Shown: piece after piece, positions 10,358 to 49,962 of the stretch
Numbering within the stretch: the first letter of the stretch is position 1
How the letters are laid out: every line of letters starts with the position of its first letter
DNA from: a candidate division FCPU426 bacterium
GTDB lineage: Bacteria; Oederibacteriota; Muellerivitia; Muellerivitales; Muellerivitaceae
Assembly: GCA_963847625.1 (NCBI GenBank)
Contig: CAWKAR010000025.1
Coordinates: 83,651-147,650 of the forward strand
Reading direction: 5' to 3'
Length of the DNA stretch: 64,000 bases
The notes under the pieces: generated by a model
What the model saw: the letters and a program-made list of their open reading frames with translations, nothing else
What the model was told of the DNA's origin: nothing
Databases searched by the model: none
Position numbers and translations under genes: made by a program

Positions 10358-10603
10358 TACAGCGTTTTTTTATGGGACAGGCTATCCTTTTTTCCCAATA
10401 GTTGTTAAATGAGCAATCCGCATATTACAGGGACAAGGAAATAACGTGCTTTGCCGCATTGACCTAACAGTTGAGATTCGCAAAGCTTTAAACAATATTT
10501 AGTGGACAAAGTAAAGTGCTCGAAATAAATCGTCTTTAAGCTTTGATGATTCTTCTAATACGCCTACCCGTCTCGGACAAGTCCAAAATTCAATTCCCTC
10601 AAT

Positions 10604-11166
10604 TTAGTTCTCTTTTATCACAACAATAGTCCCTATCTTGCAATAAGTTTTAATTTCATCTATTTCTTCGTTTGTGACGGCAATACATCCCTTTGTCCAA
10701 TCAATAAAATGATGCAAGAAACCTAACCATCCGAGACCCTTCTTGAGTCCATGAATGCCTACAATGCCGCCTAATTTTGTATCACTCGGTGGAATTTTAT
10801 GACTCTGTTGGGCTTTTATAATATTTCCAAATTCATTTTGATGAATAACTCCATCGTGAAAACCTTTCAGGGCATCCGCTTCATTGGGATAACTGAGATA
10901 AATAAAAAAATGAAAATCGCTGGTATTGTTCATCGCAACAACTCTATACACCCCAACAGGCGTTTTATTGTCACCGGCAACTTGTTTGGCACCAGCGCCT
11001 CCTTTGCCAATCGAACACTTGTATTGTTTAAAAATTTGGCCGCCTTTTTTACTTTAAGGGCATGTTCCGATTTAATGATTTCTAAAGAAAAATCCTTGGC
11101 GTAAATCAATCCATCAACTGAGTGTAAGAAAATTGAAAAGAAGAAAATAAATTTAAGATATTTCAT
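10604..11166 (-). CDS. L,D-transpeptidase (YkuD domain) with a frameshift in a T6/A6 run (plus strand 11045-11050)
   Basis: N-terminal signal peptide MKYLKFIFFFSIFLHS; after a 1-nt shift the frame reads KGGQIFKQYKCSIGKGGAGAKQVAGDNKTPVGVYRV...HG...WTKGCIAV (catalytic HG/SHGC-type). AT-rich (about 37% GC) inside a 62% GC block. Confidence 0.7.
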
Positions 11167-11203
11167 GGATGGTATTTTCAAGTTGGTATTTTTAGGGGCG
11201 CTT

Positions 11204-14200
11204 TTAATATTTCGCGGGAGCAATATTAAGCGTTTGGCCCTCGTTGGATCGCCCGAAGATTTCAGGGTCGTACATGGCTTCGGCCTCCAAACCAGGCACC
11301 TGGAACGATCCGGGCGTGACCGCCCGGACGCTGTAGGAGAAGGTCTGGTCCCCGTCCACGTCCTTCGAGAAGAGAAGAACCCGGTCATCCCTGAAATCCT
11401 GGAAGACCGGCGAGAAGCTGCATTCCGGCTCGAACGAAAGGTTGCCCCGCGAGGAAAGGCGCGGATTGTCCACCTCGAACCCGGCCGGCAGGAGATCCAC
11501 CACCACCAGGTTGTCCAGCGGCTTGGTGCACTTCACGCGCAAGGTCACCACCACCAATTGGCCCTGGGAAATCGACCCCAGGTTGATGGTATTCCCGTTC
11601 TCATCCCTGTACTCGCGGCTGACGGTCAGGCCATTCGCGACCGATTCCTTTTCCGATTTCAGCTTGGTGCCCTCGGCCATGAGATGGTAATAAAGGTCGC
11701 GGTCGCCGGTATTCTTCAGGTCAACGTCCTTGCCCGAAATCTTCTCGTCCTTCACCACCGCCGTCTCCCCGCTCAATTCGGCGGGGGCTTCCCCCTTCAC
11801 GGACCATTGGGCGCTCAAGGGATAGTTCTGGGTGGTGGCCCGGACCGCCTTCCCAACAGCCATGAAACAGAGGGCGTCCTCCTGGGTCGTGCCGTACCAG
11901 CCGTGCCCGAATTCCTTCAGCTTCTTGCCGAACTCGATGATGAGCTTGGGGATCTCCGGGTTCTTGGGGTCCGCCTCGGTCATGGCCAAAAGGTAAAGGG
12001 CCATTTCCCGGTTGGGGGAGAACCAATCCCCGTTCATCAACCGGGCCAGGCTGGTGGGAAGGTAATGCGCGGGAAGAAGGGATAGGGCGGTCGTGCGATC
12101 GCCCAGCGCGGAATAGGCCCGGGACAGGTAACAGCGCTCGCTCAACCGGCGCGCCTTCGGGTCCTGCATCTGGTCCTTCATGGCGGCCATCGACTCGGGA
12201 TCGGGCCGGTCGGCCAGGACTTTCAGGTAAAGCACGTAGGCGCTGTCCCCGATCTCGACGTTTTGCTTTCGGCGGTCCAGCCTCCCACCCCCTTGCCGGT
12301 GACCTTGATGGCCCCAAGCCGGTTCATGATCCTATCCAGGACATTCTCGTTGACCTGGTAGCCCTGCTTTTTCGCCGTGAGCAGGAATTCGGAGACGTAA
12401 TTGGACAAGTATTCCCCGCCGCCCTCCTCCTGGCCTGGCCAGAGCGCGAAGTCCCCGTCGGACAACTGCATCTTGCCCAGGTCGTCAATGGCGTCCTGCA
12501 CGTACATTTCCACCGCGTTGGCCCTTCCGCTGAAACGCCCCGTCAAAAGGCCCATATCCTTGAAGAAAAGAAGAGGGAAAGCCTGTGAGGTCCTCTGCTC
12601 GGCACAGCCATAGGGGTAATGGATGAGGTAATCCATGCTCCCCAGGAACGTCAACAAGGGGCTGGAAGAAACCGTCATGCGGACCTTTTGTCCTTGCCGG
12701 ATGAAGCCGCCGGGAACCGACAGGACCTGGGTCCCGCCCGCCCCCAACTGGCCGAAGCTGATTTGCGTCGTCAAGGGATTGCCGGGCCTCACCGCCAGCT
12801 CGGTTTCCACGTCGAAATCGTTTCCATCCTCATCCGTGGCGGTCACCTTGAAATGCGCCACGCCAGCGTCCATTTGGGCCTTGGCGTGGAACAGGATCTG
12901 TTTTTGCCCCTCCTCGCCCAGGCTGATATCCTGTTTTTTCTCGCCGTCGACCGCGACGGGACCGCTGGCGGAGAGGCTGACCTTGATGCTCTGGGGTTTC
13001 TTCGTGTTGTTATAGACCAGGACCGGCATGTCAATGTGGTCCCCGGGCGCGAGAAACCGGGGAAAGGACGGCTCCACCACCACCGGATCCGCCACCTTCA
13101 CGTGGAAGGCGGAAGCCCCGAATTTATTCGCCTGCACTCCCAGGGCCATGACCCTTACTTCCCCGTGGAACTTGTCCGTCGGGAAGTGGTAGCTGACCTT
13201 CCCCTCCTTGTCCGCCGTCAGGATGCCGGAGAAGAGGGCGAAGGATTTCACCCGTTTGGCTTCGATGGGGTTCAAATGGCGGAATTGGAAGGATTCACCC
13301 TCGTCCCCGCCCACCGCGTCCTTGCGGTCCAGGTCGGGAAGGATGTCCTCGAACAAGCTCAAGGTGGAGGTCGTGAGGCCCCGCTTGCGGTAGAAATACT
13401 TGAAGGGGTCGGGCGTGGTGAAAGCGATGATCTGGAGGATTCCCTCGTCCACCGCGGCCAGGACCACGCTGGCCCCCGGCGTGCCGGTGGACAGGTTCAC
13501 GTCGATGCCGTCCTTGGACTTTACGGACTCGGGCGCTTCCCACTTGAAGTCGATCTCATGGCTGGTGGTGTCCATCGCCAGGGTCGCGATCCCGAAGGAA
13601 GCCATCGGCATGGTCCTTAATTCCTCATTGGGCTTGCGCACCAGGAGCCCCACCACGTAGGCGTTGGGCATGTAGGCGGTCTCGACCGGGGGAAGGCTCA
13701 GCACGTTGAGCCCCGCCGCAACCGGCACCGTCGAGGTGTAAAAAACCCTCTCCCGTTCGATGGAAAGGATCAGCCTTCCGGCGAAGGGCGCGCGCACTTC
13801 CAGCTTGGGGATCTCGCCGGACTGGTATTGGGTCTTGTCGAGGTTGAGGGACAGCTTGTCCGGCTCGCCCAGGTCGGCGGATTCCTGCTGGTTCTCCTCT
13901 TTTTCCTCGGGTCCGGACACCGCCACCATGACGGAACTGCGCATGGACTCCTCGTTGCCCAGGTAGATGGTGTATTCCCCCGGCTTATCCGGCGTGAAGG
14001 TGTAGGAACCCTTTCCGTCCACGTTGACTTCTTTGCCGTCCACCACCTGCTCGTAATAGGCCGACTCGTAGCCGCGTCCGGACCATCCGCTCCGCCTGAA
14101 AATGGAATACCAGACTTTGCGCTTGACGAGAAGGATGGCTTTTTCCACCTTGGTCGGGTCGCCGTCCGGGGTGATGGCCACGTACTTGATGTGGACTTCC

Positions 14201-17200
14201 TTATTGGGGGCCGATTCCTTACCTTCCTCGCACTTGAGGCCCAGGTAATAGGGATAGCGGTGGACCCGGATGGCGGCGTTGGCGCCGACGGGCCTCCCCC
14301 CGGTGTCCAACACCTCGGCATAGACCTCAGCCTGGAGCATGGAAGGAGGAAGCATGGAGATGGGCACGGGTAATTGCACGTCAAAATTGCCCGCCGCGTC
14401 CGTCGACCCGTCCGGGACCTTCAAACTTTCGCCCGTGAACTGCCGGGTGGGGTCGGAAAAATGGTAGCTTTTCCATTTCTTGTCCGTGAATTCAATCGGG
14501 CTCAATTGGACGGCGGTTCGCACCTTCAGGCTCACGCCCGGCGCCCCGAAGAGCTGGCGCACCGCGACCCGGAAGGAGAGTTGCTCCCCGGGATTGGCGG
14601 TTTTCTTGGCGGGACGCACCTCGACCTTGATCTTGTTGGGGATGAATTCCTCCACCTTAATGGAGGTGGACGCCAGGTGGACCCCGTTCTCCAGTCCCAG
14701 CTCGACGTTCAGCATGCCGGTGGTGATGTCCTCCTTAATGGGAAAATTGAAGGTCGCCATGCCGTAGTCATGGAGTTTGGCGGTGAGTTTGGCCACCTGG
14801 TTCCCGTTTTCATCCTTGATGACGAGGTTCACGGGAAGGTCCTCGGGGATATCCAGGTCCGCCCGCCTCACGACCGCCGTGAAATTGGCCTTGTCCCCGG
14901 GGCGGTAAAGGCCCCGGTCCGAGGTCAGGAACGCGTCCCATCCGGTGGATTGGAAAGGATCCCCGCTCACGTCGAAGCGCGATTGGTTCAAGGCCGGCTG
15001 GTCCAGGCGGAGGTAGGACCAATCGTCCCCCAATTGGGCCACGACGACATAGGCGTTGAAATGGTAGGGGTTGTTCTTCCAGTCCTTGAACCAGACCCGT
15101 CCCTCGGGATCCGTTTCCTTTTCCTGGATGACCTGGTTAGTGTCGGAAATCAGCTGTAATTTCACCCCAACCGCCGGGGTCAGCCTGGAGATGGAAAGCA
15201 CCTGCACCAAAAGGTCGTCGCCCGAGTACTTCAGCATCATGCCCAGGTCGGTGCAAAGGAAGGAACGGGAGTCCCGTCCGCCGCCGTTGGCTCCGTTCAG
15301 GGAAACCACGAATAGCCCCTTATAAGGCTGGCTGTGCCATTGGCTGAAATCCAGGTCCGTTTCCGTTTCCTGGTTGATCTGCCCTTCGTTCACCTTCACG
15401 TTTCCGCCCCAGACATGGGCGCCCAACCCCGCGGTCGAGCCAGAATCGGACTGGTAGTTATTCTCGCTGGGTTCGTCCCCTTCACCCTCATCCTCGTCCT
15501 CTTCCTGTTGCCGCTGGAAATAAGCGCGGCGCTGGGGCCGGCGGTAAGAGTGCCGGTAGTAGTAGTTGGGGTAACTGCGCCAGTTCTTCAGGAAATCGAC
15601 GATGTTGTTGCGGAACACTTTTTCGACGCCGACGGAATAATTGTCCAGGTTCATGGTTTTAACCGAGACAATCTTTTTTCCCTCCAGAGGGATCAACCGC
15701 CCGTTATCGCCGAAACGCACGTAGGGCTCGATATCTTCCAGACGGATATCCTGGTCGCTGGCATGCTCCAGGATTTCCCCGGAAATGGCGCGCAGGCCCT
15801 CCTTCACGTGGATTTTGTAGTTGATGTTGGGTTGGAAATCCGCTTTCAAGACGGCGTAGCAATATTCCGTATCCACCTTGAAGGGAATCGCCGGTTCGAT
15901 GGACACGTTGTTGCGCACTTGGGAGGAAGAAGCCGGAAGCGTGAACAGGATGGAGATCAGCGTGTTTCCCGGAACATGGTGGAGCTTGATCCCCTCCACC
16001 AGCATCTTGGGCTTGGCGGGAAGGGTGATGGTGCTTTGGTACTTGTCGGCCAGGGGCTTCCCGCAATCCACGCAGGACAAGCCCGCCGCCACGGTTACCG
16101 TCAGGGTCTGGGGTTCGGTTTCACGCACCAGCCCCCCCGCCTTGAAGAAAAACCGCGTGGGAAGGGTTCCCTGTTCCAGCTCGTAGTTCAGGGAGCTTCC
16201 CGCCCGGGATACGGAAAGGCTCTGTTTGAGCAGGTTCATGTCCACCGGATAGTTGAACTCGATCTCGCCCACCAGCTCTTTTTCCGTTCCCTTGATGAGG
16301 TCGTAGGTATAGAAAAGCCGGCTGGAAACCACCTTCATGGCTTCGGTCGAAAAAGTGGTATTGGAGCTTTTTTCCAGGAAAAATTGTTTCGAGGAAAGCT
16401 TACCCGAGACGTTCAAGTGCACCTGGTAAGTGGTGGCGGGTTTCAGGGGAGCCGCGGGGGTGAAAACCAGGGTCGTGGAATCCTCCAGGCGGCTGGTTCC
16501 GGGCAGGGGGGGTGTAATCTCGAACGCGGAGTCCAAGGCGCTGATGACTTGGACGTCCCCGGAGAATTTGGCCCGGATGACCGTATTGGCCGAGGTCACC
16601 ATTCCCCGGGGGGTAAAACTGATGATATGGGTGGTGAAAGTATTATAGATCAAAAGATAAATCAGCCAGGCCGCGGCCAGGCACGCCAATATTAGGGCGG
16701 CCTTCCGGGCCAGGGGTTTCTTGGATAACTTCAATACGCTTTCCCCGCCTTTGGCTCCTTTTTGCTTGAGGAATCGGGCCGCCTTCTGGAAAAAAGGGCT
16801 TTGCCGCAGAATTTTCCATTTGGAACGCCAATCCAGGTCCGGCAATCCGTCCTTCTTGGCGATTTTTTCCGAAATTCCATAAGACTCGTAAAGACGGGTC
16901 AGATAGATAATCAATACTTGCAGGGACCAAGCCGGGTTTCTTTTGAGGAGGGCGAAAGGGATGGGGAGAAGGGCGTAGAGCCAGATCCAAGCCCGGAGGT
17001 TGCGGTGCTTCGTTTCCCGCATCCTTTCCCAAAACACCAGGAACAGCCCGGAAAGGATGAGGTGCAGCGCCAGCATCCAATTGTTTCTCTCGAAAAAATA
17101 GGGGGAATAAAAAGGGTTCATGAGGAACGTCAACCCGCCTACGGTGTAAAAAGCGAGAGCGCGGATGAAGGTTTGGGGTAATTTCAGGATTTGGGATCGG

Positions 17201-18186
17201 ACCTGGGCGGTTAAAACCGTCAGGACGAGGATAACCATCGGGATGATCAGGGAACCGGTCTGGTTTTGAATGTAAATAAATCCCAAGAGCGAACCCAGGC
17301 TCAGGAAAACTTCCTTCGCGTGGGGTTTCAGCCAGGGATTCCAGCCCCAGAGCAAACCCAAAACCAGGATTTGGAAGGGCCAGCCGAAATTACCATGGAA
17401 GAAGTAATAATATGGAAGCATCGGGACAACGGCGAAAAGCGATAGATAAAGCCGCCCCCGGGTGGCATTCGCTTCCTTCAACTTTTCCCACAAAAGAAAA
17501 ACCAGGGCCGAGAGCAGGAAATGGTGGATCAGGACGACCGGACCCCACCCTTTAATGACCTGTTGAACCCCGCGGACCGTTTCAAAGATGGGAAGTTCCG
17601 GCCAGTAGCGGTAGATCCAGTCCGTGAAATAAAACAGGACAAAGGCTTTTAGGATTTCGGGGTCCCGGCGGAATAAGAACCGGCGCAGCAGGGGGGAGAC
17701 GCCCCAGAAAATGATGGAAATCCAGTAAACGGGGGGAAGCCCCATGAGGCAAACCGCGAAGGCGGCCGCCGTGAATACCGGCGGAAGAATATTGGAGTGG
17801 AATTTTTCGAGCGCCCGGATTTTTTTCAAATCATCCCGGACCATCTCCCATCCCAAAAGAATCGTGGAATACACCACCAGGGCCAGCGCCGTGATCCAGA
17901 CAATCTTCAGGTGGGAGCTGCTCGTCGGGACCTTATCGAAAAATTTCGGGGTCAGAAAGGAAAAGATCATCATGAGGGAAAAACCCTCAACCGCCCGGAA
18001 AGGATACTTCAGGTAAATCTTGCGCAGGAGGCCGACCGCCATGAACAACGGCAGGAACAGCCACAAATTTTTATTTTGGATCAGGAGGACGGCATTGGGG
18101 TGGTTCATCCAATTGGGAATGATTGCGACAAGGGCGATTAGAACGGTGATTCCAAACCAGGCGTTTAATATTTTCCTGGGAATCAT
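11204..18186 (-). CDS. Alpha-2-macroglobulin family protein (YfhM-like) fused to an N-terminal polytopic membrane domain of about 500 aa; frame broken once near 12289-12293
   Basis: Thioester motif GCAEQ near residue 1850; C-terminal thioester-domain remainder and receptor-binding-like domain continue in ORF 11204-12235 (QNVEIGDSAYVLYLKVLADRP after a 1-nt shift in the C5/G5 run); about 12-14 predicted TM helices in the first 500 aa. Confidence 0.8.
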
Positions 18187-18230
18187 AAAGCACCTCGCGG
18201 AACGGACAAACCGGCTTATATAATAAAGAG

Positions 18231-37886: not shown

Positions 37887-38786
37887 TTATATCCGGTCGA
37901 TGTTGGACAAATTTTGAGTGTGAATAGATTTTGTTTTCTTTATTTTTTCAACGCTCTTTTTTGTAAGTGCTTGGACAATCCCCCACAAGAGATAAATCGT
38001 CAAAAATACGAATGCGGTCGGTTCAAATGCGTAAAAAAGCAAGAAAATGAGCATCACCATCATCATCAGGGTCAACGGTTTTATGGTTTCCCTCCTCAGT
38101 TTTTTCAAGCCGGGATATCGGATTGTTGAAACCATAACAAGCGCCACTACGACTGTCAGTATTGGGATAAAACGGAGTTCAATACTGCTTAGATTTTCCT
38201 CGTACAAGTTCATGACCTTATTCAAGAAAATACCTTTCCCATACCAGCCGCCCCAACGGGACAGGAGGACATAACTAGTAAGCAATCCCGCAGCCGCGGG
38301 ACTCGGCAAGCCCATGAAATGAGTCTTTTCCTCAACTTGCGACTGGACGTTGAAACGGGCCAACCTGATGGCGGCGCAAACCACGTACAAGACCATAATA
38401 AAAATTCCCCAGGGTATGTACCTAAGGACGGATAAATATATCAAAAGAGCCGGGGCCACTCCAAAACTGATCAAGTCGGATAAGCTGTCGAATTCCACCC
38501 CGAATTTCGAGGTGGTTCCCGTGACGCGAGCTACGAAACCATCCATAAAGTCGACAAAGGCGGCGGCGATGATGAGTCGGGCGGGCCAGACAAAGGGTAT
38601 GATCTTTGTTTCTGCCGCCAAGGACAAGTTTAAGGAATCATCGATGGCAAAGCGGATGGCCAGGATCCCTAATACCATATTGATGGCCGTAAAAAAATTC
38701 GGAAGCAAGTAAATGGACTTCCGCAGCCGCGAGTTGGCCGCCCGGCCCGACTCATATTCGCTTGATTTTATTCTCAGTGCGCTCAT
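37887..38786 (-). CDS. pssA: CDP-diacylglycerol--serine O-phosphatidyltransferase (CDP-alcohol phosphatidyltransferase family)
   Basis: DGFVARVTGTTSKFGVEFDSLSD matches D-G-x2-A-R-x8-G-x3-D-x3-D; multiple TM helices. Confidence 0.7.
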   Translation of the reverse strand: MSALRIKSSEYESGRAANSRLRKSIYLLPNFFTAINMVLGILAIRFAIDDSLNLSLAAETKIIPFVWPARLIIAAAFVDFMDGFVARVTGTTSKFGVEFDSLSDLISFGVAPALLIYLSVLRYIPWGIFIMVLYVVCAAIRLARFNVQSQVEEKTHFMGLPSPAAAGLLTSYVLLSRWGGWYGKGIFLNKVMNLYEENLSSIELRFIPILTVVVALVMVSTIRYPGLKKLRRETIKPLTLMMMVMLIFLLFYAFEPTAFVFLTIYLLWGIVQALTKKSVEKIKKTKSIHTQNLSNIDRI

Positions 38787-39451
38787 TTCAATTCCCCTAA
38801 CACCGTTAAACCGGCTTGTACCTTGTCTCCCAATTTAACAACGGGCTTAAAATCCATGGGAAGAAACAGATCCACCCGGGAACCAAGCAGGATTCTCCCG
38901 AAACGTTCCCCCCGTTTTAACCGCTTGCCATTCTCGGCATCGGTCTTTACTCTCCGGCAAAGGAAACCTGCGATCTGTTTGAGGACAGCTCTCCTTTTTT
39001 TTCTTCCCGGGAGTTCCAATACCAAGTGAGCCTGTTCATTTTTTAAATCGGCCTTATCTTCATAAGCCGCCAGAAATTGACCCGGGTGGTAAACTTTTTT
39101 CACCACCCGGCTATCGAAAGGAGCCCGTTGGACGTGGTTGTTCAATGGGTTCATGAAAATGGCGATGTGGAATGCCCGCTTTTTGAGGTAAAGCCTTTCA
39201 AATTCTTCCCCAAAAACCACAATTTTTCCATCTGCCGGGCTTACAACCTCGTTCGGATCCAACAAGCTGTCAGGTATCCGTTCAAAATCCCTGAAAAAAT
39301 TCAACATCAGGGCTATCGCCAACAAAATCACAACGCCTGTTAAGATTAGCCAAAACATCTGGTAATGCTTACCCACACCCACCAAGGCCATGCCAGCCAA
39401 AAAGGTCGGCACAACCATGCTCCAAGTTTCTTTAACAAATGGCAGCTTCAT
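38783..39451 (-). CDS. psd: Phosphatidylserine decarboxylase-related protein (short form)
   Basis: C-terminal GERFGRILLGSRVDLFLP resembles the Psd proenzyme cleavage region; ATGA overlap with pssA. Confidence 0.6.
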   Translation of the reverse strand: MKLPFVKETWSMVVPTFLAGMALVGVGKHYQMFWLILTGVVILLAIALMLNFFRDFERIPDSLLDPNEVVSPADGKIVVFGEEFERLYLKKRAFHIAIFMNPLNNHVQRAPFDSRVVKKVYHPGQFLAAYEDKADLKNEQAHLVLELPGRKKRRAVLKQIAGFLCRRVKTDAENGKRLKRGERFGRILLGSRVDLFLPMDFKPVVKLGDKVQAGLTVLGELK

Positions 39452-40548: not shown

Positions 40549-41091
40549 TTAAAGATTGGACTGTCCGGCTTTTCCGGCCTGCACTTTTACTGTTTTTTCT
40601 TCTTCCTCGTGAACTTTCTTTCCCCGGGAAATGGCAACCTCACCGGTACGAACCATTTCAATAATTCCATAATTTTTCAAAAGTTCGATCATCCCATTGA
40701 TCTTACTTTCCTTGCCCGTGACCTCGATGATGAAGCTCTTGAGGGCCACGTCCACGATTTTAGCGTCGAAGCATTGGACGATTTCCATGACCTGGCTTCG
40801 CGAGTGGGGCTCTGCCTTGACCTTGATGAGGGTCAAGTCCCGTGCGATGAAATCGTCGCCAGTCAAGTCCACCACTTTAATAACGTCGACAAGCTTGTTC
40901 AACTGCTTTTCCACCTGATCAATGATCTGGTCGTCGCCCTTCGCGACGATGGTCATTCGGGAGATGGCAGGGTTGTCGGTGATGCCCACCACCAGGCTGT
41001 CGATGTTGTAACCCCGAGCCGAGAAAAGATTTGAAACCCGGGAAAGCACCCCCGCATGATTATTCACTAAAACCGAAATAGTATGCCTCAT
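40549..41091 (-). CDS. ilvN: Acetolactate synthase small (regulatory, ACT) subunit
   Basis: MRHTISVLVNNHAGVLSRVSNLFSARGYNIDSL. Confidence 0.85.
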   Translation of the reverse strand: MRHTISVLVNNHAGVLSRVSNLFSARGYNIDSLVVGITDNPAISRMTIVAKGDDQIIDQVEKQLNKLVDVIKVVDLTGDDFIARDLTLIKVKAEPHSRSQVMEIVQCFDAKIVDVALKSFIIEVTGKESKINGMIELLKNYGIIEMVRTGEVAISRGKKVHEEEEKTVKVQAGKAGQSNL

Positions 41092-42866
41092 TTGCGGCCT
41101 CCTTTGCCTTTGGCTTTATCGGCGCCTTTGACGCGCGTCTTGGTTTCGGCCGTCAAGCGCTGTTGTTCGTCCTGTTTCGAAAACATCATATCCTTGACCG
41201 CCCCGCCGGCCGGAACCATGGGATAAACGTGCTCTTCCGCGTCCACGTGCACATCCACGATGCAGGGCCCCTTGGTCTTGAACGCTTCCTCTAGCATCGA
41301 AGTCGTATCCTGGGGAGTCTCCGCGCGGTAGCCCTTGATGCCGTAGGATTCGGCCAGCTTGACGAAATCCGGCTGGGCCGGTATGGGCGTGCTCGCGTAG
41401 CGTTTGCCAAAAAAGAGGTCCTGCCACTGCTTCACGAAGCCCAGAAACTTGTTGTTGAAAATAACCACTTTGACGTTGAGATTGTACTGTTTGACGATCG
41501 CGAGTTCCTGCAGGTTCATCTGGAAGCTGCCATCGCCCGCCAAGTCCACGACGGTTGCGTCCGGGAAGGCAAAAGAAGCCCCGATGGCCGCGGGAAAACC
41601 AAAACCCATGGTGCCCAGCCCCCCCGAGGTGATCAAACGCCGCGGCTTGGTGAATTTGTAATGTTGGGCTGACCACATCTGGTGCTGGCCCACTTCGGTG
41701 GCAACAATGGCATCGCCCTTGGTGAGGCGGTAAATCTCATCCACGACGAACTGGGGTAGGATCGGGCCGTTCGGGTCCTGTTTGAACAACGCCAGCGGAT
41801 GTTTCTTGTGCCAGGCATCCAATTCGTCGTACCACTCGTCGTAATCCTTGGTGCCAGCCATTTTGGTCAGGGCTGCGAGGATAGCGTTCATGTCGCCCAG
41901 GATATGGATGTCCACTTTCACGTTCTTGCCGATGGAGGTGGGGTCCACGTCGATGTGGATCTTCTTGGAGTGCGGAGAGAATTCTGAAATTTTTCCCGTC
42001 ACCCGGTCATCAAATCGGCTACCGATGGCGATCAAGAGGTCGCAATGGGTCAAGGCCATATTGGCGCGGTAGGACCCGTGCATGCCCAACATATCGATAA
42101 ACTGGCGGTTGTTGGCCGGGAAGGCCCCCAAGCCCATCAAGGTCAAGGTCACGGGAATGTTGGTCTTCCGGGCGAACTGGTAGAGCGCGTCTGAGGCGTT
42201 CGCGTTGATGACGCCGCCACCCGCGTAGATGAGGGGTTTTTTGGCCTGCTGGATGAGCTCGGCCATCTTCCCGATCTGGCTAAAGTCGGGCTTGGGCACC
42301 AGTTTGGAAAGCGGAATAGACGTGTTCTTGGGGTACGGCACCTCGGCCGAAGCTGCCGAGATGTCCTTGGGAATATCCACTAGGACCGGCCCGGGGCGGC
42401 CCGTTCGCGCGATAAAAAAGGCGTCCCGTAGGATTTGGGGTAGTTCCATGATGTTTTTCACTAGAAAGTTATGCTTGGTGCAGGAACGCGTGATTCCCAC
42501 GATGTCGGCTTCCTGGAAGGCATCGGTTCCAATCAGAGTGGTCGGCACCTGGCCGGTAATAGCCACCAAAGGCACAGAATCCATGCAAGCATCTGCTAAA
42601 CCTGTCACCAGGTTGGTGGCTCCGGGACCGGACGTGGCAATACAAACCCCCACCTTGCCCGTGGCCTTGGCATAACCTTCCGCCATGTGGATGGCCCCTT
42701 GTTCATGTCGGGTACCCACCAATTTGATTCGATCCGCGCAGTGATAAAGCGCGTCAAAAATCGGAAGAACCGCGCCCCCGGTTATTCCAAACATGATTTC
42801 CACGCCCTCGTCCATAAGCATGTCAGCAACCATTTGGGCTCCGGTTTTGAGTTTGATGTTAGACAT
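41088..42866 (-). CDS. ilvB: Acetolactate synthase large subunit
   Basis: ThDP/FAD enzyme; GITGGAVLPIFDAL N-terminus; 592 aa; ATGA overlap with ilvN. Confidence 0.85.
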   Translation of the reverse strand: MSNIKLKTGAQMVADMLMDEGVEIMFGITGGAVLPIFDALYHCADRIKLVGTRHEQGAIHMAEGYAKATGKVGVCIATSGPGATNLVTGLADACMDSVPLVAITGQVPTTLIGTDAFQEADIVGITRSCTKHNFLVKNIMELPQILRDAFFIARTGRPGPVLVDIPKDISAASAEVPYPKNTSIPLSKLVPKPDFSQIGKMAELIQQAKKPLIYAGGGVINANASDALYQFARKTNIPVTLTLMGLGAFPANNRQFIDMLGMHGSYRANMALTHCDLLIAIGSRFDDRVTGKISEFSPHSKKIHIDVDPTSIGKNVKVDIHILGDMNAILAALTKMAGTKDYDEWYDELDAWHKKHPLALFKQDPNGPILPQFVVDEIYRLTKGDAIVATEVGQHQMWSAQHYKFTKPRRLITSGGLGTMGFGFPAAIGASFAFPDATVVDLAGDGSFQMNLQELAIVKQYNLNVKVVIFNNKFLGFVKQWQDLFFGKRYASTPIPAQPDFVKLAESYGIKGYRAETPQDTTSMLEEAFKTKGPCIVDVHVDAEEHVYPMVPAGGAVKDMMFSKQDEQQRLTAETKTRVKGADKAKGKGGRK

Positions 42867-43048
42867 GGTTTTCTCCCTAGAAGATCCCGCCCTTTGGGGT
42901 GAAAGACCCAGATTTTACAATAATTCCAAGCGTTTGTTCAGAAATACCGGCCATATTCGCAGTTAATTCCGCGGTTTAAGCCGCTTCTTGAATAAACCCT
43001 TTAATTTTCAGGTCGGGTATTCTGCTTTGGCGGGGTGACTTTGGCCTT

Positions 43049-43095
43049 AAAACAAAAAAGCCGCGGTGGCCCCATTTGGCGGGACCCCGCGGCCT
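43049..43095 (-). terminator. Rho-independent terminator of the ilv attenuator
   Basis: Coding-strand GGCCGCGGGGTCCCGCCAAATGGGGCCACCGCGGC followed by TTTTTTGTTTT, located between the leader peptide and ilvB. Confidence 0.7.
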
Positions 43096-43106
43096 AGTAG
43101 CCGTCT

Positions 43107-43184
43107 TTAGGAGCGCACCGCCTCCGGACGCAATACAAGTACCAGTACCAAAAGAACTAAGTTAATTGCGTTTTCGAAGGCCAT
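43107..43184 (-). CDS. ilv leader peptide MAFENAINLVLLVLVLVLRPEAVRS (25 aa)
   Basis: SD GGAG 7 nt upstream; 6 Leu + 5 Val + 1 Ile in a 25-aa ORF; stop 11 nt before the terminator stem. Confidence 0.7.
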   Translation of the reverse strand: MAFENAINLVLLVLVLVLRPEAVRS

Positions 43185-43219
43185 TTTTTCTCCTTAAAAC
43201 AATCAGCTAAACTTATGGA

Positions 43220-43248
43220 AATATATCTTACCTATTTTTTCAAGTCAA
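43220..43248 (-). promoter_or_regulatory. Sigma70-like promoter TTGACT-N17-TATATT for the ilv-leu operon
   Basis: Reverse complement of 43243-43248 = TTGACT and of 43220-43225 = TATATT; about 35 nt upstream of the leader ATG. Confidence 0.55.
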
Positions 43249-43270
43249 GGGGATTGAGGAAAAAATAATT

Positions 43271-43867
43271 TCATGGACTAAAACACTTCCATAAAAGCCA
43301 TAGAAAAACAAAAAAGATACCCCAAACAATAAATGAATTTTTGAAATCATCCCACCAAATGAGCCCCTTGTTTTCAGCAAAATACTTTCTAAAACGCCCA
43401 AAATAATAGATTGCGGGGGGCCCAAAAACCACGAATATTATTGAAGCTATGATTATGGTTTTTTGCGTTTCCGGACTTTTTATAATCCGTAAAACAAGGA
43501 AAAACGAGATCAAAGCCATAGCCGATTGAATTATCCAAAAAACCACGTATTTAAAAAGATGGGGTGGAATTTGGAAAATATAAATTTGCCATGATTTACT
43601 CATCGCGTTCATGGCATGGTGCTCTTTTGGTAGACGGGTACCACACCGGTAACAAAACTTGATCAATTTGCCTTTATGAAACCAGCTGTGATGATGAAGC
43701 GCTGTTGTATGTGGACAGGTTTTCACGATCCAAGACATGGAAATGGCAAACCAAACACAAAGAGAGATCTGGATCACAAGACCAGCATTCAAGAACTGAT
43801 AATCATAGTTGGAGGTAATCAGGCTTAATGCGAGGTTCAGGAACAAAAACCAATACCAAGGCTCCAA
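43271..43867 (-). CDS. Hypothetical membrane protein with zinc-ribbon-like CPH...CYRCG segment
   Basis: 198 aa, 4-5 TM segments. Confidence 0.35.
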   Translation of the reverse strand: MEPWYWFLFLNLALSLITSNYDYQFLNAGLVIQISLCVWFAISMSWIVKTCPHTTALHHHSWFHKGKLIKFCYRCGTRLPKEHHAMNAMSKSWQIYIFQIPPHLFKYVVFWIIQSAMALISFFLVLRIIKSPETQKTIIIASIIFVVFGPPAIYYFGRFRKYFAENKGLIWWDDFKNSFIVWGIFFVFLWLLWKCFSP

Positions 43868-44052
43868 TATTCCGATTAATCGTAAATCCTCCGTGGATTC
43901 CAGAAAATATCTTCAACCTTTTCCCAACGCCGTAAGTAATACCGGAACAATCAAAAAGGAGGCCAAAACCATGAATTAAATTCCTTCCCAAAATTTAAAA
44001 TATTATCCGGATCAATCCCCGGCTGAAAAGATAACGGCGGTTTTATTCTATT

Positions 44053-44766
44053 TCAAACCATTAGTTTTTGGCGTATCCATAACGCAGCAAGAATCGAAAA
44101 CCAAAGTATAAATACCACTCTTCCAATCGCTGAAAACCGTCCCATTTCTTTTCCCTCGGTTTTTTTTAAATAAAAACAAATGAGATAGTTGAAAAAACAA
44201 AGCGCCATCGCGCCGAAGGCTAATAAAAGCTTGTAATAAAAATAATATAAGGAACCAATCGCTAAAAGGGTTGAAAGGCCAAAATAAAAACCCATCCAAC
44301 CCCAAAGCCAGGAAATTACAAGTTTATTTATCAATGCTGAATATTTATCAGAAAAAGATTCGCCAGGTAAATATGAACCCATAATAAAAAAAAATAAATA
44401 TAAAAAAATGAAACCCAAAAACATCGGCAAATAAATTATTGAGAAATGGTTATGATCTGTTAAGAAAAAAGTTGCTTCTAACCATAAAAAAAGGAAAGTC
44501 ATTGCCCAAAGATTCGAAATAATCCCTGAATGCAATTTGGGTAGCCAAGTCATCATAATTGATCCTAATAAAGCGCAAATAATGATTGTAAAGAAAATAA
44601 AACCCTGAATCAATTTACCTTGATAAATATTTACCAACCCTTTAAGCAATTGAAACCCATGACTATCCTGACAAATAGGCGCAGTTAGCAAATAAAGTAA
44701 ATATAGAAACAACGTCATGATAATGAAAAGAATAATTTGGAAACTAAATTTGATTTTTTCAATCAC
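44053..44766 (-). CDS. Hypothetical polytopic membrane protein
   Basis: 237 aa, about 7 hydrophobic helices; no motif. Confidence 0.35.
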   Translation of the reverse strand: MIEKIKFSFQIILFIIMTLFLYLLYLLTAPICQDSHGFQLLKGLVNIYQGKLIQGFIFFTIIICALLGSIMMTWLPKLHSGIISNLWAMTFLFLWLEATFFLTDHNHFSIIYLPMFLGFIFLYLFFFIMGSYLPGESFSDKYSALINKLVISWLWGWMGFYFGLSTLLAIGSLYYFYYKLLLAFGAMALCFFNYLICFYLKKTEGKEMGRFSAIGRVVFILWFSILAALWIRQKLMV

Positions 44767-46005
44767 AAATGCCTACCTTAAGACAGAAATAATCTAAAAT
44801 GGTTTTCCGTCTTCTCCCCGGAGAATATAAAAAGGAAGAAATTCTTAAATGCATTGTGGCATAAGAGTTCTAGCTTGTGAAGGGTGTTCCACAGCAACTA
44901 TGCGCCTTCTTCTATACCACAACCATATCCCCACATTAGAACGTCATTTGATCGAGTAAATAAAATTGGTTGATAAATTCCCAAAAGAAAAATGAATCAG
45001 ATAAATATTGGCTCTTCTCCCACTTATATATAATTTATATTTGGGGAAGAGGAAGACTTTATAAAAATCATAGTCCGTCAACTTCTCGTAATTAGTTTTT
45101 AGAAATCCTAAATCTTTCCTTTTCTTCATTCCAAATAAGTTATTCATATTTTTTATAACTCATAAAAGATTTCGATATCCACCTAAGTAAAAATTTTTCC
45201 TAATAACCTCAAACCGTTCTCATCAAATTCATTAAACATTTCAGCCCGGGGAACATGACCAACCAAATTATCGAATAAATCATTTCTGGGCTTAATTTTT
45301 ACAACTACATTTTCAATCGATTTGAGAAGTTCCATTAGCGCATTAGCTTTAAACTAAGTTAAGTTAGGTTGCAAGAAGCTTTGAAGCTGAAGTTTTGTTA
45401 CGGTGGGTTAATCTAAATATAAAGTTTTGGCCACAGCTTTATTTCTTCGCCTTGATAAGTAGAACTTATTCTCACAATTTCCTCAGGAACGATACCTCCA
45501 TAAGAATCTCTAATAATGTACCGCAAAGATACACAAAAGCCTTTAAGGTATTCACTATATCTCAGCTTCTCCCTTGCATAATGTTGCCTAATCTTCTTTC
45601 CGCATAAAAAATATTTAGATCCCTAAATCAAAAAAATTATAAAAAGAGGGAGAGTTTTACCAGGAAAAGATATAAGTTATGCGAGGGACGGTTTAAAAAT
45701 TATGGCGAAAAAGATTGCAAAAAACTTGCTCGGCCAGGAGTAAAACTTTGAATAAGGTTTACAGTTTAAAGGATGAAAATAAACCTCGGCAAATACACAG
45801 GGCCTGCTAAACTTTATGAATTTCTTACAGCAATAGCATGCAATTGGATATAAAATCATAGCAAAATAAAATAAAAAAATTCTAAATCTAATATACATCA
45901 TAGTATCATAATATAACGTAATATATCATAACGTTGTTTAGGTTATAATTGTATTGTTCATAACAACTTTGTTTTTTTCTTTATAAACAATCAAGGAGAA
46001 ATGAA

Positions 46006-46488
46006 ATGAAACAGAAATGGTCCAAAGAAAAAATTGTTGAAACTATAAAGGAATTGCAAAAACAAAACATTGATATATCAGCAAGCAATATTTCCAAGAA
46101 CTATATCCCACTCTTTACCGCTGCTTGCTCCAGACGGTATTTCGCTAGTTGGGCCAATGCAATCAAAGCTGCAGGCATTGATTACAATTTAATATTGGAA
46201 GCAGGAAAAACGCGCCGTAGAAATAAATTAACGAAATGGTCAAAAGATCAAGTTCTTGAACTTGTTAAATCGGCTGATTCTAAAAATTTATTAACAACTT
46301 ACCGGGATCGTCTTGCTCTTTATTCTGCAGCTCGTCGGGAATTTGGCAGTTGGAAACAAGCGTTAGAAGCTGCAGGTTATCGTCTGACCAAGGGATCACA
46401 TAAGAATTCTAATCAAATCTTTAAAAAAGAAGAACAACCCGGTTCAATGACAAATCCCAATTTTTCGAAGGCTTCTCAAACGATTTAA
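46006..46488 (+). CDS. Hypothetical protein with two tandem copies of a module of about 65 aa
   Basis: WSKEKIVETIKEL...RRYFASWANAIKAAG and WSKDQVLELVKSA...RREFGSWKQALEAAG; strong SD AGGAG; sits in an AT-rich island. Confidence 0.45.
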   Translation: MKQKWSKEKIVETIKELQKQNIDISASNISKNYIPLFTAACSRRYFASWANAIKAAGIDYNLILEAGKTRRRNKLTKWSKDQVLELVKSADSKNLLTTYRDRLALYSAARREFGSWKQALEAAGYRLTKGSHKNSNQIFKKEEQPGSMTNPNFSKASQTI

Positions 46489-46627
46489 TAAAGGTTTTTT
46501 AAAATATTTTTTAAGACAACCTGGTCTTAATATCCTTTTGTGACCTTTTTCATATTTTTAGTGTTATTAATTTTTTTACCTTTTGATGGCCAGCTTTTTT
46601 GTTCCCATTATTTTATTATCCTCAATA

Positions 46628-47030
46628 CTAGTAAAGACCGCTGGCAAGTTTTCTTCCAAAACTACTTATACCAGACCATTTTTTTAACTTATTAATTCCT
46701 TCGTTTGGTCTTCGTTTAAATTCGTTTTCCATACCATGGTCCCCGCTCACATCAAATATTCTTATGAAAATCGAAGTCGTTTCAAGGCAAAAAGTAACAT
46801 TTACATCCCCGTCCATGGATGGGTTTGGATAACAGTAAGTTGTCCTTCCTTTAAAACAGCTTCACATGGATTATCCGCCACGATCAGATCGGCCCTTCTA
46901 TCGCCATTTAGGTCACCAAACTTTATATCAGCTGGGAAGAATCCATCCGGCAAGTCGATTGATTATGATAGGTCAAATAATGGGATATCAAGGATCACTT
47001 TTTTTGAAGTCATTGTTAATATTTGAATTT
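46628..47030 (-). pseudogene. FG-GAP-like repeat protein gene remnant (downstream part, decayed)
   Basis: Short open stretches DLPDGFFPADIKFGDLNGDRRADLIVADNP and FDVSGDHGMEN interrupted by stops. Confidence 0.4.
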
Positions 47031-47037
47031 CATTTGA

Positions 47038-47178
47038 GGGTACCTCTATAAATTGCTGTTCCCCTTCTCCCTAGAGGGGAGAAGGATGGGATGAGGGTAG
47101 AAATAGCGAGGTTTTTTACCCCTCACCCTACCCTCGCCCTCAAGGGGCGAGGGCTTAAATGGATTTTTAGAGGTTCCC
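47038..47178 (+). mobile_element. MITE of about 141 bp with IS5-like terminal inverted repeats, a palindromic core and a 4-bp TTGA target-site duplication
   Basis: Left gggtacctctataaatt and right aatttttagaggttccc match the inverted repeat ggaacctctaaaaatt of the IS5-like element at 48653-49962; core hairpins ccttctccc/gggagaagg and ccctcgcc/ggcgaggg; TTGA at 47034-47037 and 47179-47182. Confidence 0.7.
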
Positions 47179-47196
47179 TTGAGTCAAGATATGAAG

Positions 47197-47458
47197 TCAC
47201 AATCTCATTATAGCCATCCCATTTAAATCCCCTGAAGCTATTCGGGTTGGTCCTGCATGAACAGTAAAATCGGTTCTTTTCCCAAGTCTCTCCCCCTTAA
47301 CATTAAATATGGAAATACAATTCGAATCATAATTAGACACTATAACAATTGGTTTTCCATTTGTTTTAGTTAAGCTTGCGCAAATACCTACCGGCATGTT
47401 CAATGTTTGTTTTTCATCGATTTTTCTGAATTTTCCGTTTTCATTGCAGAATACGTAT
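47197..47458 (-). pseudogene. FG-GAP-like gene remnant (upstream part), truncated by IS30 copy B
   Basis: ...IASGDLNGMAIMRL; the only Met start lies inside the IS30 end. Confidence 0.35.
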
Positions 47459-48513
47459 GCCGAATTCACGGAGTAAGTGCAACACTTCGCCGGAAGACTT
47501 CCGCCGGAGTTTTAAAGCCCAAACATTTCCTGGGCCTGTTATTGAGCCATCTTTCTATGGTCCTGAATTCTTTGAAGGACACTTTAGCAAGATCAGTCTT
47601 TTTAGGCAAATGGCGGCGGACAAGACCGATAGTATTTTCCACCGTACCTTTTTCCCAACTGTGGAAAGGGGCGCAGAAAAAGGATTTTGTACCAAGCACG
47701 TGGTTGGTTTCCAAGTGGTTGGTGTTTTCGGTTCCGTTGTCATAGGTCAGACTCAGGCGGGCGTCTTGAGGGAAGCGGCATAAAGCGCGGTTGAGGCTAT
47801 GACTCATTTGGCGAGCGGTCTTTCGTTTGAGCTTTCCCAACTTGGAAAAACGGCTTTGACGCTCGACGAGAGCCCGCATAGCCACTTTACTCTGACGAGA
47901 GACCATGGTGTCGGTTTCCCAATGGCCGAATTGCTTGCGTTGATTGGCGATCTCGGAGCGCTTATCGATGGAAACACGGCCTGGGATATGGTTTTTGGCG
48001 TGCTTACGGCTATGGCCAAATGAGAATCGTCGCCGGTGGTGTCGAACTAGGCAAGGAATCAGCTCAGTGGCTTCAGCATAAACCCACTGATAGATAGCTT
48101 CAGGACCAATGGTTTGCTTAGGCCGTAGGTGACCTAATCGACCTGAAATGAGTTCTGGAGACCAGCCTCGTTTCAATTGACGACGGACGTAGGCACGAAT
48201 TCGTTTTGTTTTCAGGCGTAAACGGCGTGCTCGTTGTTGGTTGCGGTCAACATACCGTTGATGGGCTCGATGAGAAAGATAATAACCAGAACGGATAGGG
48301 GGAGCATTGCGCTTGAGTTCCCTGGAGAGGGTGGAAGGAGACCTCTTCAAGGCGCGTGAAATTGCTCGAAGGCTAAGACCCTTTCCTTTCAAGACGGATA
48401 AATGATCTCTTTCTTCAACGCTTAAATGCTTGTATTTCTTTTTCATAGCCGCATATCCTATTCATGCGGCCTTCTTCAGACACTAAGTGTTGCACTTACT
48501 TATGGAACTCGGG
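47459..48513 (-). mobile_element. IS30-family insertion sequence, copy B, identical to copy A and flanked by a 3-bp TAT duplication
   Basis: Same 1055 bp as 2486-3540 in inverted orientation; plus-strand flanks ...cgTAT and TATatt. Confidence 0.85.
47466..48446 (-). CDS. IS30 family transposase (identical to 2553-3533)
   Basis: 326-aa identical protein. Confidence 0.9.
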   Translation of the reverse strand: MKKKYKHLSVEERDHLSVLKGKGLSLRAISRALKRSPSTLSRELKRNAPPIRSGYYLSHRAHQRYVDRNQQRARRLRLKTKRIRAYVRRQLKRGWSPELISGRLGHLRPKQTIGPEAIYQWVYAEATELIPCLVRHHRRRFSFGHSRKHAKNHIPGRVSIDKRSEIANQRKQFGHWETDTMVSRQSKVAMRALVERQSRFSKLGKLKRKTARQMSHSLNRALCRFPQDARLSLTYDNGTENTNHLETNHVLGTKSFFCAPFHSWEKGTVENTIGLVRRHLPKKTDLAKVSFKEFRTIERWLNNRPRKCLGFKTPAEVFRRSVALTP

Positions 48514-48652
48514 TATATTAAATTCAAGTAATAACATGTAACAAGGATATTTTGACGTCCATCATTAGAAAGATCTAAGGCACCAACGCCTCGATGGCTC
48601 AAACTCGTTTTAATATTAGAAAGCCATTGCAATCCATTGGAACCCGGAGAAT

Positions 48653-49962
48653 AAATTCGTACTATTGAATTAAAGGAACCTCTAAAAATTCATTGTAAAG
48701 AGACAGCTAAATCGGTACAAGGAAGAATCAGCGCATGAAGTGCTGAAAAATTCCAGTAATGAGGCGCTACTGATGGGGCAAACCGGATTTTTTGATCTGG
48801 AGAATCGTCTGAAATCGCTGGATGAGATAGGCGATCCACTGATGACATTGAATCGGGTGATTCCTTGGGAGTAATTTCGGGGACTTCTGCGAAAAGCTTT
48901 ACGCGACAAAGAACGAAAAAGTGAGGCCGGACGACGGCCGTATGATGAAGTTTTGATGTTCAAGGTGCTGGTTCTGCAGGCGTTGTACAACCTGGCGGAT
49001 GAAAAGACCCAGTTTTACATTCAAGACCACTTGAGCTTCATGCGTTTTCTGGGACTAGGAATGGATGGGAAAGTGCCGGATGAGAAAACCATCTGGTGGT
49101 ATCGGGATACATTAGCCCAAGGTTGGTGGATTGACCGATTGTTCAAGAAGTTCAACGGTTGCTTGGATGAGGCCGGTTTAAAAGCCCAAGAAGGCTAAAT
49201 CATTGACGCGTCCATCGTAGAGGTGCCCCGGCAGCGGAACAGCAAGGGTGAAAACGACCAGATTAAGAAGGATGAAACGCCGGAGGGATGGAAAAAAGAG
49301 CCCAACAAATTGCGGCAAAAAGACGTGGACGCGAAATGGGTCAAAAAGAACGATGTGAACCATTATGGATACAAGAACCATATCAATGTGGATAAGAAAT
49401 ATAAGCTGATAAGGAAGTTTGAGGTCACGGCAGCCTCGGTGCATGACAGCGAAGTGTTTGAGGAGATTTTGGACGGAAATAATCGAAAGAAGATATGGGC
49501 GGACAGCGCATACCGGTCGGGTAAGAAGAGCAAGTCTCTAAAGCGTAAAGGATACGATATTCAGACCCATTACAAATCCAACAGAAACCATCCTTTAACG
49601 AAGTCCCAAGAGAAGATGAACAAAATCAGGTCAAAGACGAGAGTACGGGTGGAACATGTATTTGGGCACATGGAAGTGGCGATGGGAGGAAACTGGCTGA
49701 GAGTGGTAGGTAAGGTCAGGTCGAGGATGAAGATCGGCATGAGAAACTTAGCCTACAATATGCATCGATTTACGTACTTGATGGGACGAATGCATCCCGG
49801 GATAGAGAAGGCATAAATTTCAAGGACATTGGAAGCTGGAAAGAAGTACTGAAGGGAAAAAAAGTCCCAGAGAGAAAAAAATCTCTCTCGAAACCGAGAA
49901 TTAAAGGCTATTCAACCGCCTTGGACGGCCTAGAAAATCCCGAACTGCAATTTTTAGAGGTT
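48653..49962 (+). mobile_element. IS5-family insertion sequence (about 1.31 kb) with 16-bp perfect inverted repeats ggaacctctaaaaatt and probable TAAA target-site duplication
   Basis: Inverted repeats at 48653-48668 and 49947-49962; transposase frame spans the interior. Confidence 0.75.
48771..49816 (+). pseudogene. IS5-family transposase (DDE_Tnp_1) interrupted by two in-frame TAA codons
   Basis: A single frame reads MGQTGFFDLENRLKSLDEIGDPLMTLNRVIPWE*FRGLL...YDEVLMFKVLVLQALYNLADEK...GLKAQEG*IIDASIVEVPRQRN...; stops at 48872-48874 and 49196-49198. Confidence 0.7.

Follow-up and report, generated by a model that had tools for sequence, protein, structure and literature searches.

We analyzed a 64,000-nt stretch of DNA (the window) from a candidate division FCPU426 bacterium (GCA_963847625.1, contig CAWKAR010000025.1, positions 83,651 to 147,650) and focused on the region upstream of ilvB, for which a leader-peptide attenuator had been proposed from the letters of the sequence (the original prediction). 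By Pfam assignment, ilvB is the first gene of an operon on the minus strand with the order ilvB-ilvN-ilvC-psd-pssA-leuA-leuB, which ends at 35186. It encodes the 592-aa large subunit of acetolactate synthase (41088..42866, minus strand, ATG at 42866) and contains the N, M and C domains of the TPP_enzyme family. All of the features described upstream of it are likewise on the minus strand, and positions written from high to low follow the direction of transcription. The predicted promoter TTGACT-N17-TATATT is indeed present (P1, 43220..43248), with a -35 element TTGACT at 43248..43243, a 17-nt spacer and a -10 element TATATT at 43225..43220, from which we infer a transcription start near 43213. 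The predicted GGAG Shine-Dalgarno sequence lies within AAGGAG (43190..43195), 5 nt ahead of the ATG of the leader open reading frame (ORF; 43107..43184), which has 25 codons plus TAA and encodes MAFENAINLVLLVLVLVLRPEAVRS. As had been counted, 12 of the 25 residues are branched-chain (six Leu, five Val and one Ile). The predicted GC-rich hairpin and U-run, 11 nt past the leader stop codon, were found as an intrinsic terminator (43049..43094) consisting of a 15-pair G+C-rich hairpin (43094..43059) followed by UUUUUUGUUUU (43059..43049). The untranslated spacer to ilvB is 185 nt.

Codons 9-18 of the leader ORF (43131..43160, minus strand) are ten Leu and Val codons without a break (UUA GUU CUU UUG GUA CUG GUA CUU GUA UUG). 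The operon, with ilvBNC, leuA and leuB, makes Val and Leu, and the Leu/Val-only codon run matches its products. Among the 749 ATG-initiated ORFs of 12-45 codons in the window, this is the sole one with at least eight Leu or Val per ten consecutive codons, scoring ten of ten, and no ORF with at least nine of ten was found in 20 shuffled windows. Promoter-like and terminator-like sites detected by simple scans are not significant alone (10 versus 11.7 expected and 6 versus 8.3 expected, respectively). Folding, which had been suggested as a check on the terminator, gave a stable hairpin of -29.7 kcal/mol (z = -4.09) that none of 200 shuffles equaled, and the fold of the whole leader has a z of -4.26. 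An Rfam scan of the entire window at the gathering score, with a library that includes the Leu, His, Thr and Trp leaders, the T-box and other ilv/leu motifs, yielded no match. With E up to 10 over 42600..43500, there were two chance-level matches and no T-box, riboswitch or known leader family.

For a comparison with relatives, we searched for IlvB proteins, found a clade 65-99% identical to the IlvB of the window, and retrieved the DNA around twelve such proteins. The leader unit is present directly upstream of ilvB in 10 further metagenomic loci (L081, L082, L083, L211, L210, L213, L084/85, L212, L086-88 and L089), whose IlvB is 67-87% identical. At each locus it comprises a TTGAC[AT]-N17-TATA-like promoter, a Shine-Dalgarno sequence, an ORF of 25-28 codons, a terminator and a U-run. 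The promoter pattern TTGAC[AT]-N17-TA[TG]A[AT]T is kept at the equivalent position in 10 of 10 related loci, GGAG or GAGG precedes the leader start codon in all relatives, and all relatives have terminators, with energies of -22 to -37 kcal/mol. In an alignment of ten sequences, the terminator helix is 85% paired, with three pairs changed on both sides. The gene order of the operon recurs in related loci, while the gene upstream of the leader differs between loci, indicating that the conserved linkage is to ilvB. In terms of sequence comparison, we regard this conservation in 10 further loci as decisive support for an element that did not arise by chance. The guess that the small ORF had escaped annotation also fits, as the leader ORF is uncalled in every locus with visible gene calls, and the Rfam searches gave no match.

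The element has a narrow distribution. At locus L214, whose IlvB is 58% identical, the intergenic region is 120 nt and has no leader. The leader core motif was absent from 80 more distant loci (L001-L080), and no second copy of the core was detected in the window. The best match to IlvB in species-representative genomes was 55% identical among the matches listed. For RpoA, the closest relatives that carry a name, Candidatus Firestonebacteria and candidate division FCPU426, show 65-68% identity. When metagenomes were scanned with the pattern CTTCG-N{35,65}-CCGGAGGCGGYKMKCKCC, the matches listed were all attributable to chance, falling within G+C-rich protein genes (PEA[AV].. motifs), and a short Leu/Val ORF accompanied none of them. 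Judged by these searches, the leader element is confined to the clade whose IlvB is at least 67% identical.

The leader ORF is conserved in a manner expected of translated regulatory codons and of structured RNA. The common form of the leader peptides is M-x-[FS]-G-(4-5 residues)-(Leu/Val-rich run of 10-12)-R-(N)-P-E-A-x-x-x. Their ORFs are 25, 26, 27 or 28 codons long, so the insertions and deletions preserve the frame, and the Shine-Dalgarno sequence, the start codon, the reading frame and the position of the stop codon relative to the antiterminator described below are retained despite them. No change in the Leu/Val run alters an amino acid among the closest relatives (two synonymous changes between the window and L081, four between the window and L082). 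The suggested check for conservation of the small ORF therefore came out in its favor: it is kept ahead of ilvB in 10 loci, the frame is preserved, and changes in the run are often synonymous. In remoter relatives, Pro, Thr, Ala, Gly and Asp occur inside the run (LPLVVLVTVL in L210, LLLVLGVVDV in L084), and these substitutions fit the counting of regulatory codons rather than a membrane helix. A hydrophobic membrane peptide or type I toxin would keep its helix at the amino-acid level; here conservation tracks the RNA stems, not the residues. The alignment is consistent with constraint on both the peptide and the RNA, as expected for an attenuator.

Codon choice in the run is biased as well. 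Three of the four Val codons among codons 9-18 are GUA, which is the rarest Val codon in the genes of the window (10% of 401 Val codons in 14 genes), and in the runs of nine distinct leaders among the relatives GUA accounts for 28 of 37 Val codons. A bias toward rare codons at regulatory positions is predicted by the theory of attenuator sensitivity (PMC1183508), though the preference for GUA may instead have a structural cause.

We examined the structures that the leader RNA could adopt. The first is a predicted protector (anti-antiterminator) hairpin (43098..43209, minus strand), in which the 5´ UTR, the Shine-Dalgarno sequence and codons 1-7 are paired with the RNA from codon 18 through codon 25 and the stop codon to 9 nt beyond it. 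Its core stem is GCCUUCG (43181..43175) with CGGAGGC (43126..43120), the partner of the leader Shine-Dalgarno sequence is CUCCU (43113..43109), where the ORF ends, and the Leu/Val codons sit in the apical part. The hairpin has an energy of -37.8 kcal/mol (z = -3.68), with one of 200 shuffles equally stable, and over ten sequences the core helix is 90% paired, with two pairs compensated by changes on both sides. The conserved FG and RPEA residues of the peptide correspond to the two strands of this RNA stem, CCUUCGG and CCGGAGG. Changes among the relatives preserve the pairing: in L210 a core C-G is replaced by U-A through two synonymous substitutions, and in L213 a UUC to UCC change (Phe to Ser) converts a U-G pair of the core stem into C-G.

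Nucleotide identity among the relatives extends beyond the leader stop codon, and this segment forms part of the second structure, a predicted antiterminator (43078..43122, minus strand). Here GGCGG-U-G-C-GCUCC-UAAA-G-A-CGGCU (43122..43099), which spans the leader stop codon, pairs with GGCCG-C-GGGGU-C-CCGCC (43094..43078), which comprises the 5´ arm of the terminator and the first two loop bases; the energy is -21 to -23 kcal/mol. The alternative pairing sought as a check on the original prediction thus exists at 43122..43078, but it does not overlap the Leu/Val codons as had been supposed, lying 3´ of them across the stop codon. With arm boundaries fixed and the upstream strand replaced by composition-matched shuffles, capture of 14 of the 14 terminator-arm nucleotides, as found in the window, was reached by 0.3% of shuffles (P = 0.003). 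Capture of the arm was near-complete in nine of the ten sequences, with P = 0.001-0.011 against the shuffled upstream strand. The architecture is predicted in all ten aligned sequences, in which 84.5% of cells are paired versus 42-56% with a slid partner. L084-type leaders alter both antiterminator strands (GAUC with GAUC), giving 14-16 of 16 pairs in their own register versus 11-12 of 17 in the window register, and their register fits window-type leaders at just 7-11 of 16 pairs. We read this shift as subgroup-specific co-variation, of a kind that a single consensus structure would be unable to score. Bases 43122..43120 are common to the protector core and the antiterminator, and 43094..43080 are common to the antiterminator and the terminator; protector, antiterminator and terminator are predicted to be three competing structures. 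In L210 a base common to the protector and the antiterminator (G to A) has changed along with both of its partners, the antiterminator partner being a C to U change in the terminator loop.

We then folded each transcript, ended before the 3´ arm of the terminator, in three states; in the stalled state only the RNA 3´ of the ribosome could fold. In the ribosome-free state, 0-6 arm nucleotides paired with the antiterminator strand in nine of the ten sequences. With a ribosome stalled at most of the Leu/Val codons, 11-15 of the 12-16 arm nucleotides were captured in every sequence, and with a ribosome at the stop codon none were captured. According to these folds, the three-state logic (termination with no ribosome, antitermination upon a Leu/Val stall, termination with a ribosome at the stop codon) holds in nine of the ten sequences.

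From the elements found in the sequence, from their conservation and from the alternative folds predicted for the leader, we infer the coupling of ribosome and RNA polymerase, the stalling and the regulatory outcome as follows. Transcription would start near 43213, and a ribosome would load as AAGGAG and the AUG emerge. When Leu and Val are plentiful, the ribosome would traverse the ten Leu/Val codons to the UAA (43109..43107) and mask 43122..43099, allowing the terminator (43094..43059 and the U-run) to form and RNA polymerase to halt near 43050. A shortage of charged Leu- or Val-tRNA would stall the ribosome in codons 9-18, keeping the protector open; 43122..43099 could then pair with the 5´ arm of the terminator before the 3´ arm is made, and polymerase would continue into ilvB. 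Without translation, the protector would sequester 43126..43098, making termination the default. The terminator, the alternative pairing and the small ORF conserved ahead of ilvB in 10 loci all support the ribosome-mediated attenuation that had been proposed, and we conclude that the element is probably an attenuator that sets readthrough from P1 into ilvB-ilvN-ilvC-psd-pssA-leuA-leuB in response to how much charged Leu- and Val-tRNA is available.

Several observations weigh against this conclusion. The related sequences number only 10-11. Folded alone, the antiterminator segment is little more stable than G+C-rich shuffles (z = -1.11; 27 of 200), and its covariation is modest: in a single register, just one pair has changes in both strands, and the score is reached by 27 of 500 shuffles. 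Capture of the terminator arm is weak in L089 (10 of 14, P = 0.29), and the minimum-free-energy fold of L086 lets the predicted protector and antiterminator coexist. When RNA may pair around the ribosome, the outer stems of the protector survive stalls at codons 10-17, and the three-state model thus relies on the usual steric assumption. A conserved promoter-like block closer to ilvB could drive the gene independently of the attenuator. Finally, a similar-looking ilvB leader in Streptomyces coelicolor did not show classical attenuator behavior when its codons were mutated (PMC1262725). This precedent of an ILV-rich leader ORF without classical attenuation, together with the strong conservation of the stems at the nucleotide level, would also suit a translation-independent RNA switch that binds a protein, tRNA or metabolite (compare the T-box, riboswitches and the actinobacterial LEU element), with the ORF being incidental. 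We consider such a switch extremely improbable, given that no Rfam family, the T-box included, matched even at E up to 10, that the frame, Shine-Dalgarno sequence, start codon and stop position survive insertions and deletions, and that the Leu/Val run is kept by synonymous change and biased to rare codons, which would be unexpected for an untranslated ORF.

The promoter-like block (42895..42940, minus strand), a candidate second promoter or operator, contains ATTATTGTAAAATCTGGGTCTTTC at 42924..42895, 45-60 nt ahead of the ilvB ATG. It is near-invariant in 10 of 11 loci, especially in TGTAAAAT and CTTTC, and the spacer that separates it from the terminator varies from ~100 to 270 nt among the loci. 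In the window it reads TGAACA-N17-TAAAAT (42940..42912), with a -35-like hexamer that is not conserved among the related loci. Were the block to act as a strong promoter, expression of ilvB would depend only in part on the attenuator. Several other identities for the block were considered and rejected. As a conserved upstream ORF, the candidate in the window has 25 codons (42954..42877, ending on the ilvB Shine-Dalgarno sequence) and is frameshifted in L082 and interrupted in L081. As a structured RNA, the block gave -1.3 kcal/mol and four weak pairs with RNAalifold, and no conserved helix. A sigma-54 promoter was unsupported, the spacing being unsuitable by eye, as was a CodY box, with whose consensus 10 of 15 positions agreed by eye in window-type sequences only. 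Nor is the block a repeated motif of the window, where it has a single exact copy and weaker matches at chance level.

This block also bears on another explanation, in which P1, the 25-codon ORF and the terminator form an independent small gene, encoding a hydrophobic membrane or type-I-toxin-like micropeptide or a small RNA, and ilvB is transcribed from 42940..42912, its adjacency being mere synteny. The ORF does have its own promoter, Shine-Dalgarno sequence and strong terminator, and both the conserved TAAAAT-containing block between terminator and ilvB and the variable distance to it are in line with two separate units. We nevertheless judge a separate gene to be very unlikely. The run is nearly all Leu and Val rather than mixed hydrophobics and tolerates Pro, Asp, Gly and Thr, unlike a membrane helix; the FG and RPEA changes noted above (Phe to Ser in L213, synonymous compensation in L210) preserve pairing over residue; and the nucleotide conservation past the stop codon enters the segment complementary to the terminator arm. 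Moreover, the unit is linked to ilvB in 11 of 11 loci despite differing upstream neighbors, and the -35 of the second block is unconserved.

The spacer has a further property in common among the loci. Over the 60 nt past the terminator (42990-43048 on the minus strand in the window), C exceeds G in 11 of 11 loci (14-29 C versus 7-15 G), and in window-type loci this tract holds a conserved AAGGCC..CCCGCCAAAGCAGAAACCCCC. By its composition, the tract may be a Rho-loading site or another signal. Control by the leader could then act mainly through Rho and translational coupling, with translation of the leader gating access of Rho to the C-rich 185-nt spacer and the intrinsic terminator playing a lesser part. 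The excess of C in every locus, as a Rho-loading site would show, and the long, untranslated spacer agree with this, but C-over-G excess is a weak indicator, the intrinsic terminator is strong (-22 to -37 kcal/mol plus the U-run) and conserved with compensatory changes, and the antiterminator pairing targets its 5´ arm specifically; we regard Rho as a highly improbable main route. We also find it unlikely, to a lesser degree, that control of ilvB is two-tiered, combining the attenuator with the block GA(T)TAYTGTAAAATC..GGGYCTTTC, perhaps together with the C-rich tract, as a second, undescribed regulatory element. If so, the block could serve an unknown regulator as its operator or promoter, or mark a site of processing or Rho loading; the attenuator would then be only one input, or else the unit of P1 and leader would double as a stand-alone small RNA or micropeptide gene.

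Returning to ribosome-mediated attenuation as the favored explanation, we compared the element with known leaders. The leaders of ilvBN (ivbL) and ilvGMEDA (ilvL) in Escherichia coli and Salmonella are classical attenuators, and that of E. coli ilvBN responds to Val and Leu only. The element shares with them a promoter, a leader ORF with a run of Val/Leu codons, predicted 1:2, 2:3 and 3:4 pairings of its regions and an intrinsic terminator, and its Leu/Val-only run has a counterpart in the bivalent control of E. coli ilvBN by Val and Leu. In contrast to the enteric leaders, to which its sequence is unrelated, the regulatory codons are in the apical loop of the protector instead of its 5´ strand, the stop codon is inside the 5´ strand of the antiterminator, and the host belongs to an uncultured lineage.

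The ilvBNC attenuator of Corynebacterium glutamicum, with the leader peptide IlvL (MTIIRLVVVTARRLP), a 292-nt leader and a three-hairpin model, has been dissected by mutation (PMC11857589, PMC10272879). As in C. glutamicum, the element described here is upstream of an operon starting with ilvB-ilvN-ilvC, has a short leader ORF with branched-chain codons and is predicted to form three competing hairpins. Both leaders are long (~350 nt here from the putative start to ilvB), and the control codons of C. glutamicum, GUA for Val and CUU for Leu, are both frequent here too. There is no sequence similarity between the two, and the differences extend to the length of the peptide (25 codons versus 15 in C. 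glutamicum), to the ten consecutive Leu/Val codons without an Ile run, to the Shine-Dalgarno sequence 5 nt before the ATG, whereas the C. glutamicum leader is nearly leaderless, and to the presence of psd, pssA, leuA and leuB in the operon. The C. glutamicum attenuator is also known from mutations, whereas the present one is known from sequence and predicted folds. A leucine-rich attenuator peptide acts together with the repressor CodY on the ilv-leu operon of Staphylococcus aureus (PMC5794164). The likeness lies in the attenuation of an ilv-leu operon through a leader peptide rich in branched-chain codons; unlike in S. aureus, CodY-type control is not inferable here.

Candidate ilvB leader peptides followed by terminators have also been predicted in Actinobacteria (PMC1262725). 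Among the more distant loci, we found non-homologous ILV-rich short ORFs 100-300 nt upstream of ilvB in L001, L034, L051, L055, L059 and L076, each with a strong hairpin and a U-run behind it. Their hosts are an unclassified bacterium, Bryobacterales/Acidobacteriota and a rumen bacterium, MKLLTQVVPALVVVVVAGTA and MPGLIVILVIVRGPA are examples of their peptides, and they are probably further unannotated attenuators. The element of the window resembles both groups in having a short ILV-rich ORF, then a strong hairpin and U-run, 100-300 nt ahead of ilvB. Its peptide and RNA sequences differ from theirs, and we therefore treat them as analogous elements, which may be of independent origin.

Other features of the operon and its surroundings were noted. 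Between ilvC and leuA are psd, encoding a phosphatidylserine decarboxylase, and a gene for a pssA-like CDP-alcohol phosphatidyltransferase (37887-39451, minus strand), and the order ilvC-psd-pssA is also found in the related loci long enough to show it (L081, L084, L086 and L089). Between the ilv operon and the rpsD-rpoA-rplQ cluster, the region 44000-49900 has a low GC content (0.32 at 44-46 kb versus 0.47-0.51 in the operon) and contains, in addition to ORFs without a Pfam match, an HNH_repeat ORF at 46006-46488, an IS30-like integrase at 47466-48446 and a DDE transposase at 49223-49816. This DNA is probably mobile or of foreign origin. The region 8000-18200 is compositionally uneven, with a GC content of 0.58-0.62 around a 1987-codon ORF (12223-18186, minus strand) and a 789-codon ORF, compared with ~0.40 at the ends of the window.

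Attenuators with leader peptides upstream of ilvB are textbook and widespread, and the present element changes no concept. The lack of a sequence relative in Rfam and the confinement to one uncultured clade make it a new, sequence-unrelated representative of this known class. With it, genomes of an uncultured lineage gain a regulatory element that had gone unannotated and whose mechanism is coherent, and a covariance model for annotating the leader in metagenomes could be built from the 10-11 aligned sequences. In strongly favoring the rare Val codon GUA at its regulatory positions, the leader provides a clean natural case of the predicted codon choice in attenuators. For the organism, the element indicates that the ilv-leu operon responds to Leu and Val, and the phospholipid genes would be co-transcribed with the branched-chain amino-acid genes behind the attenuator. 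The lineage probably uses classical attenuation, a sigma-70-type promoter and the coupling of transcription with translation.

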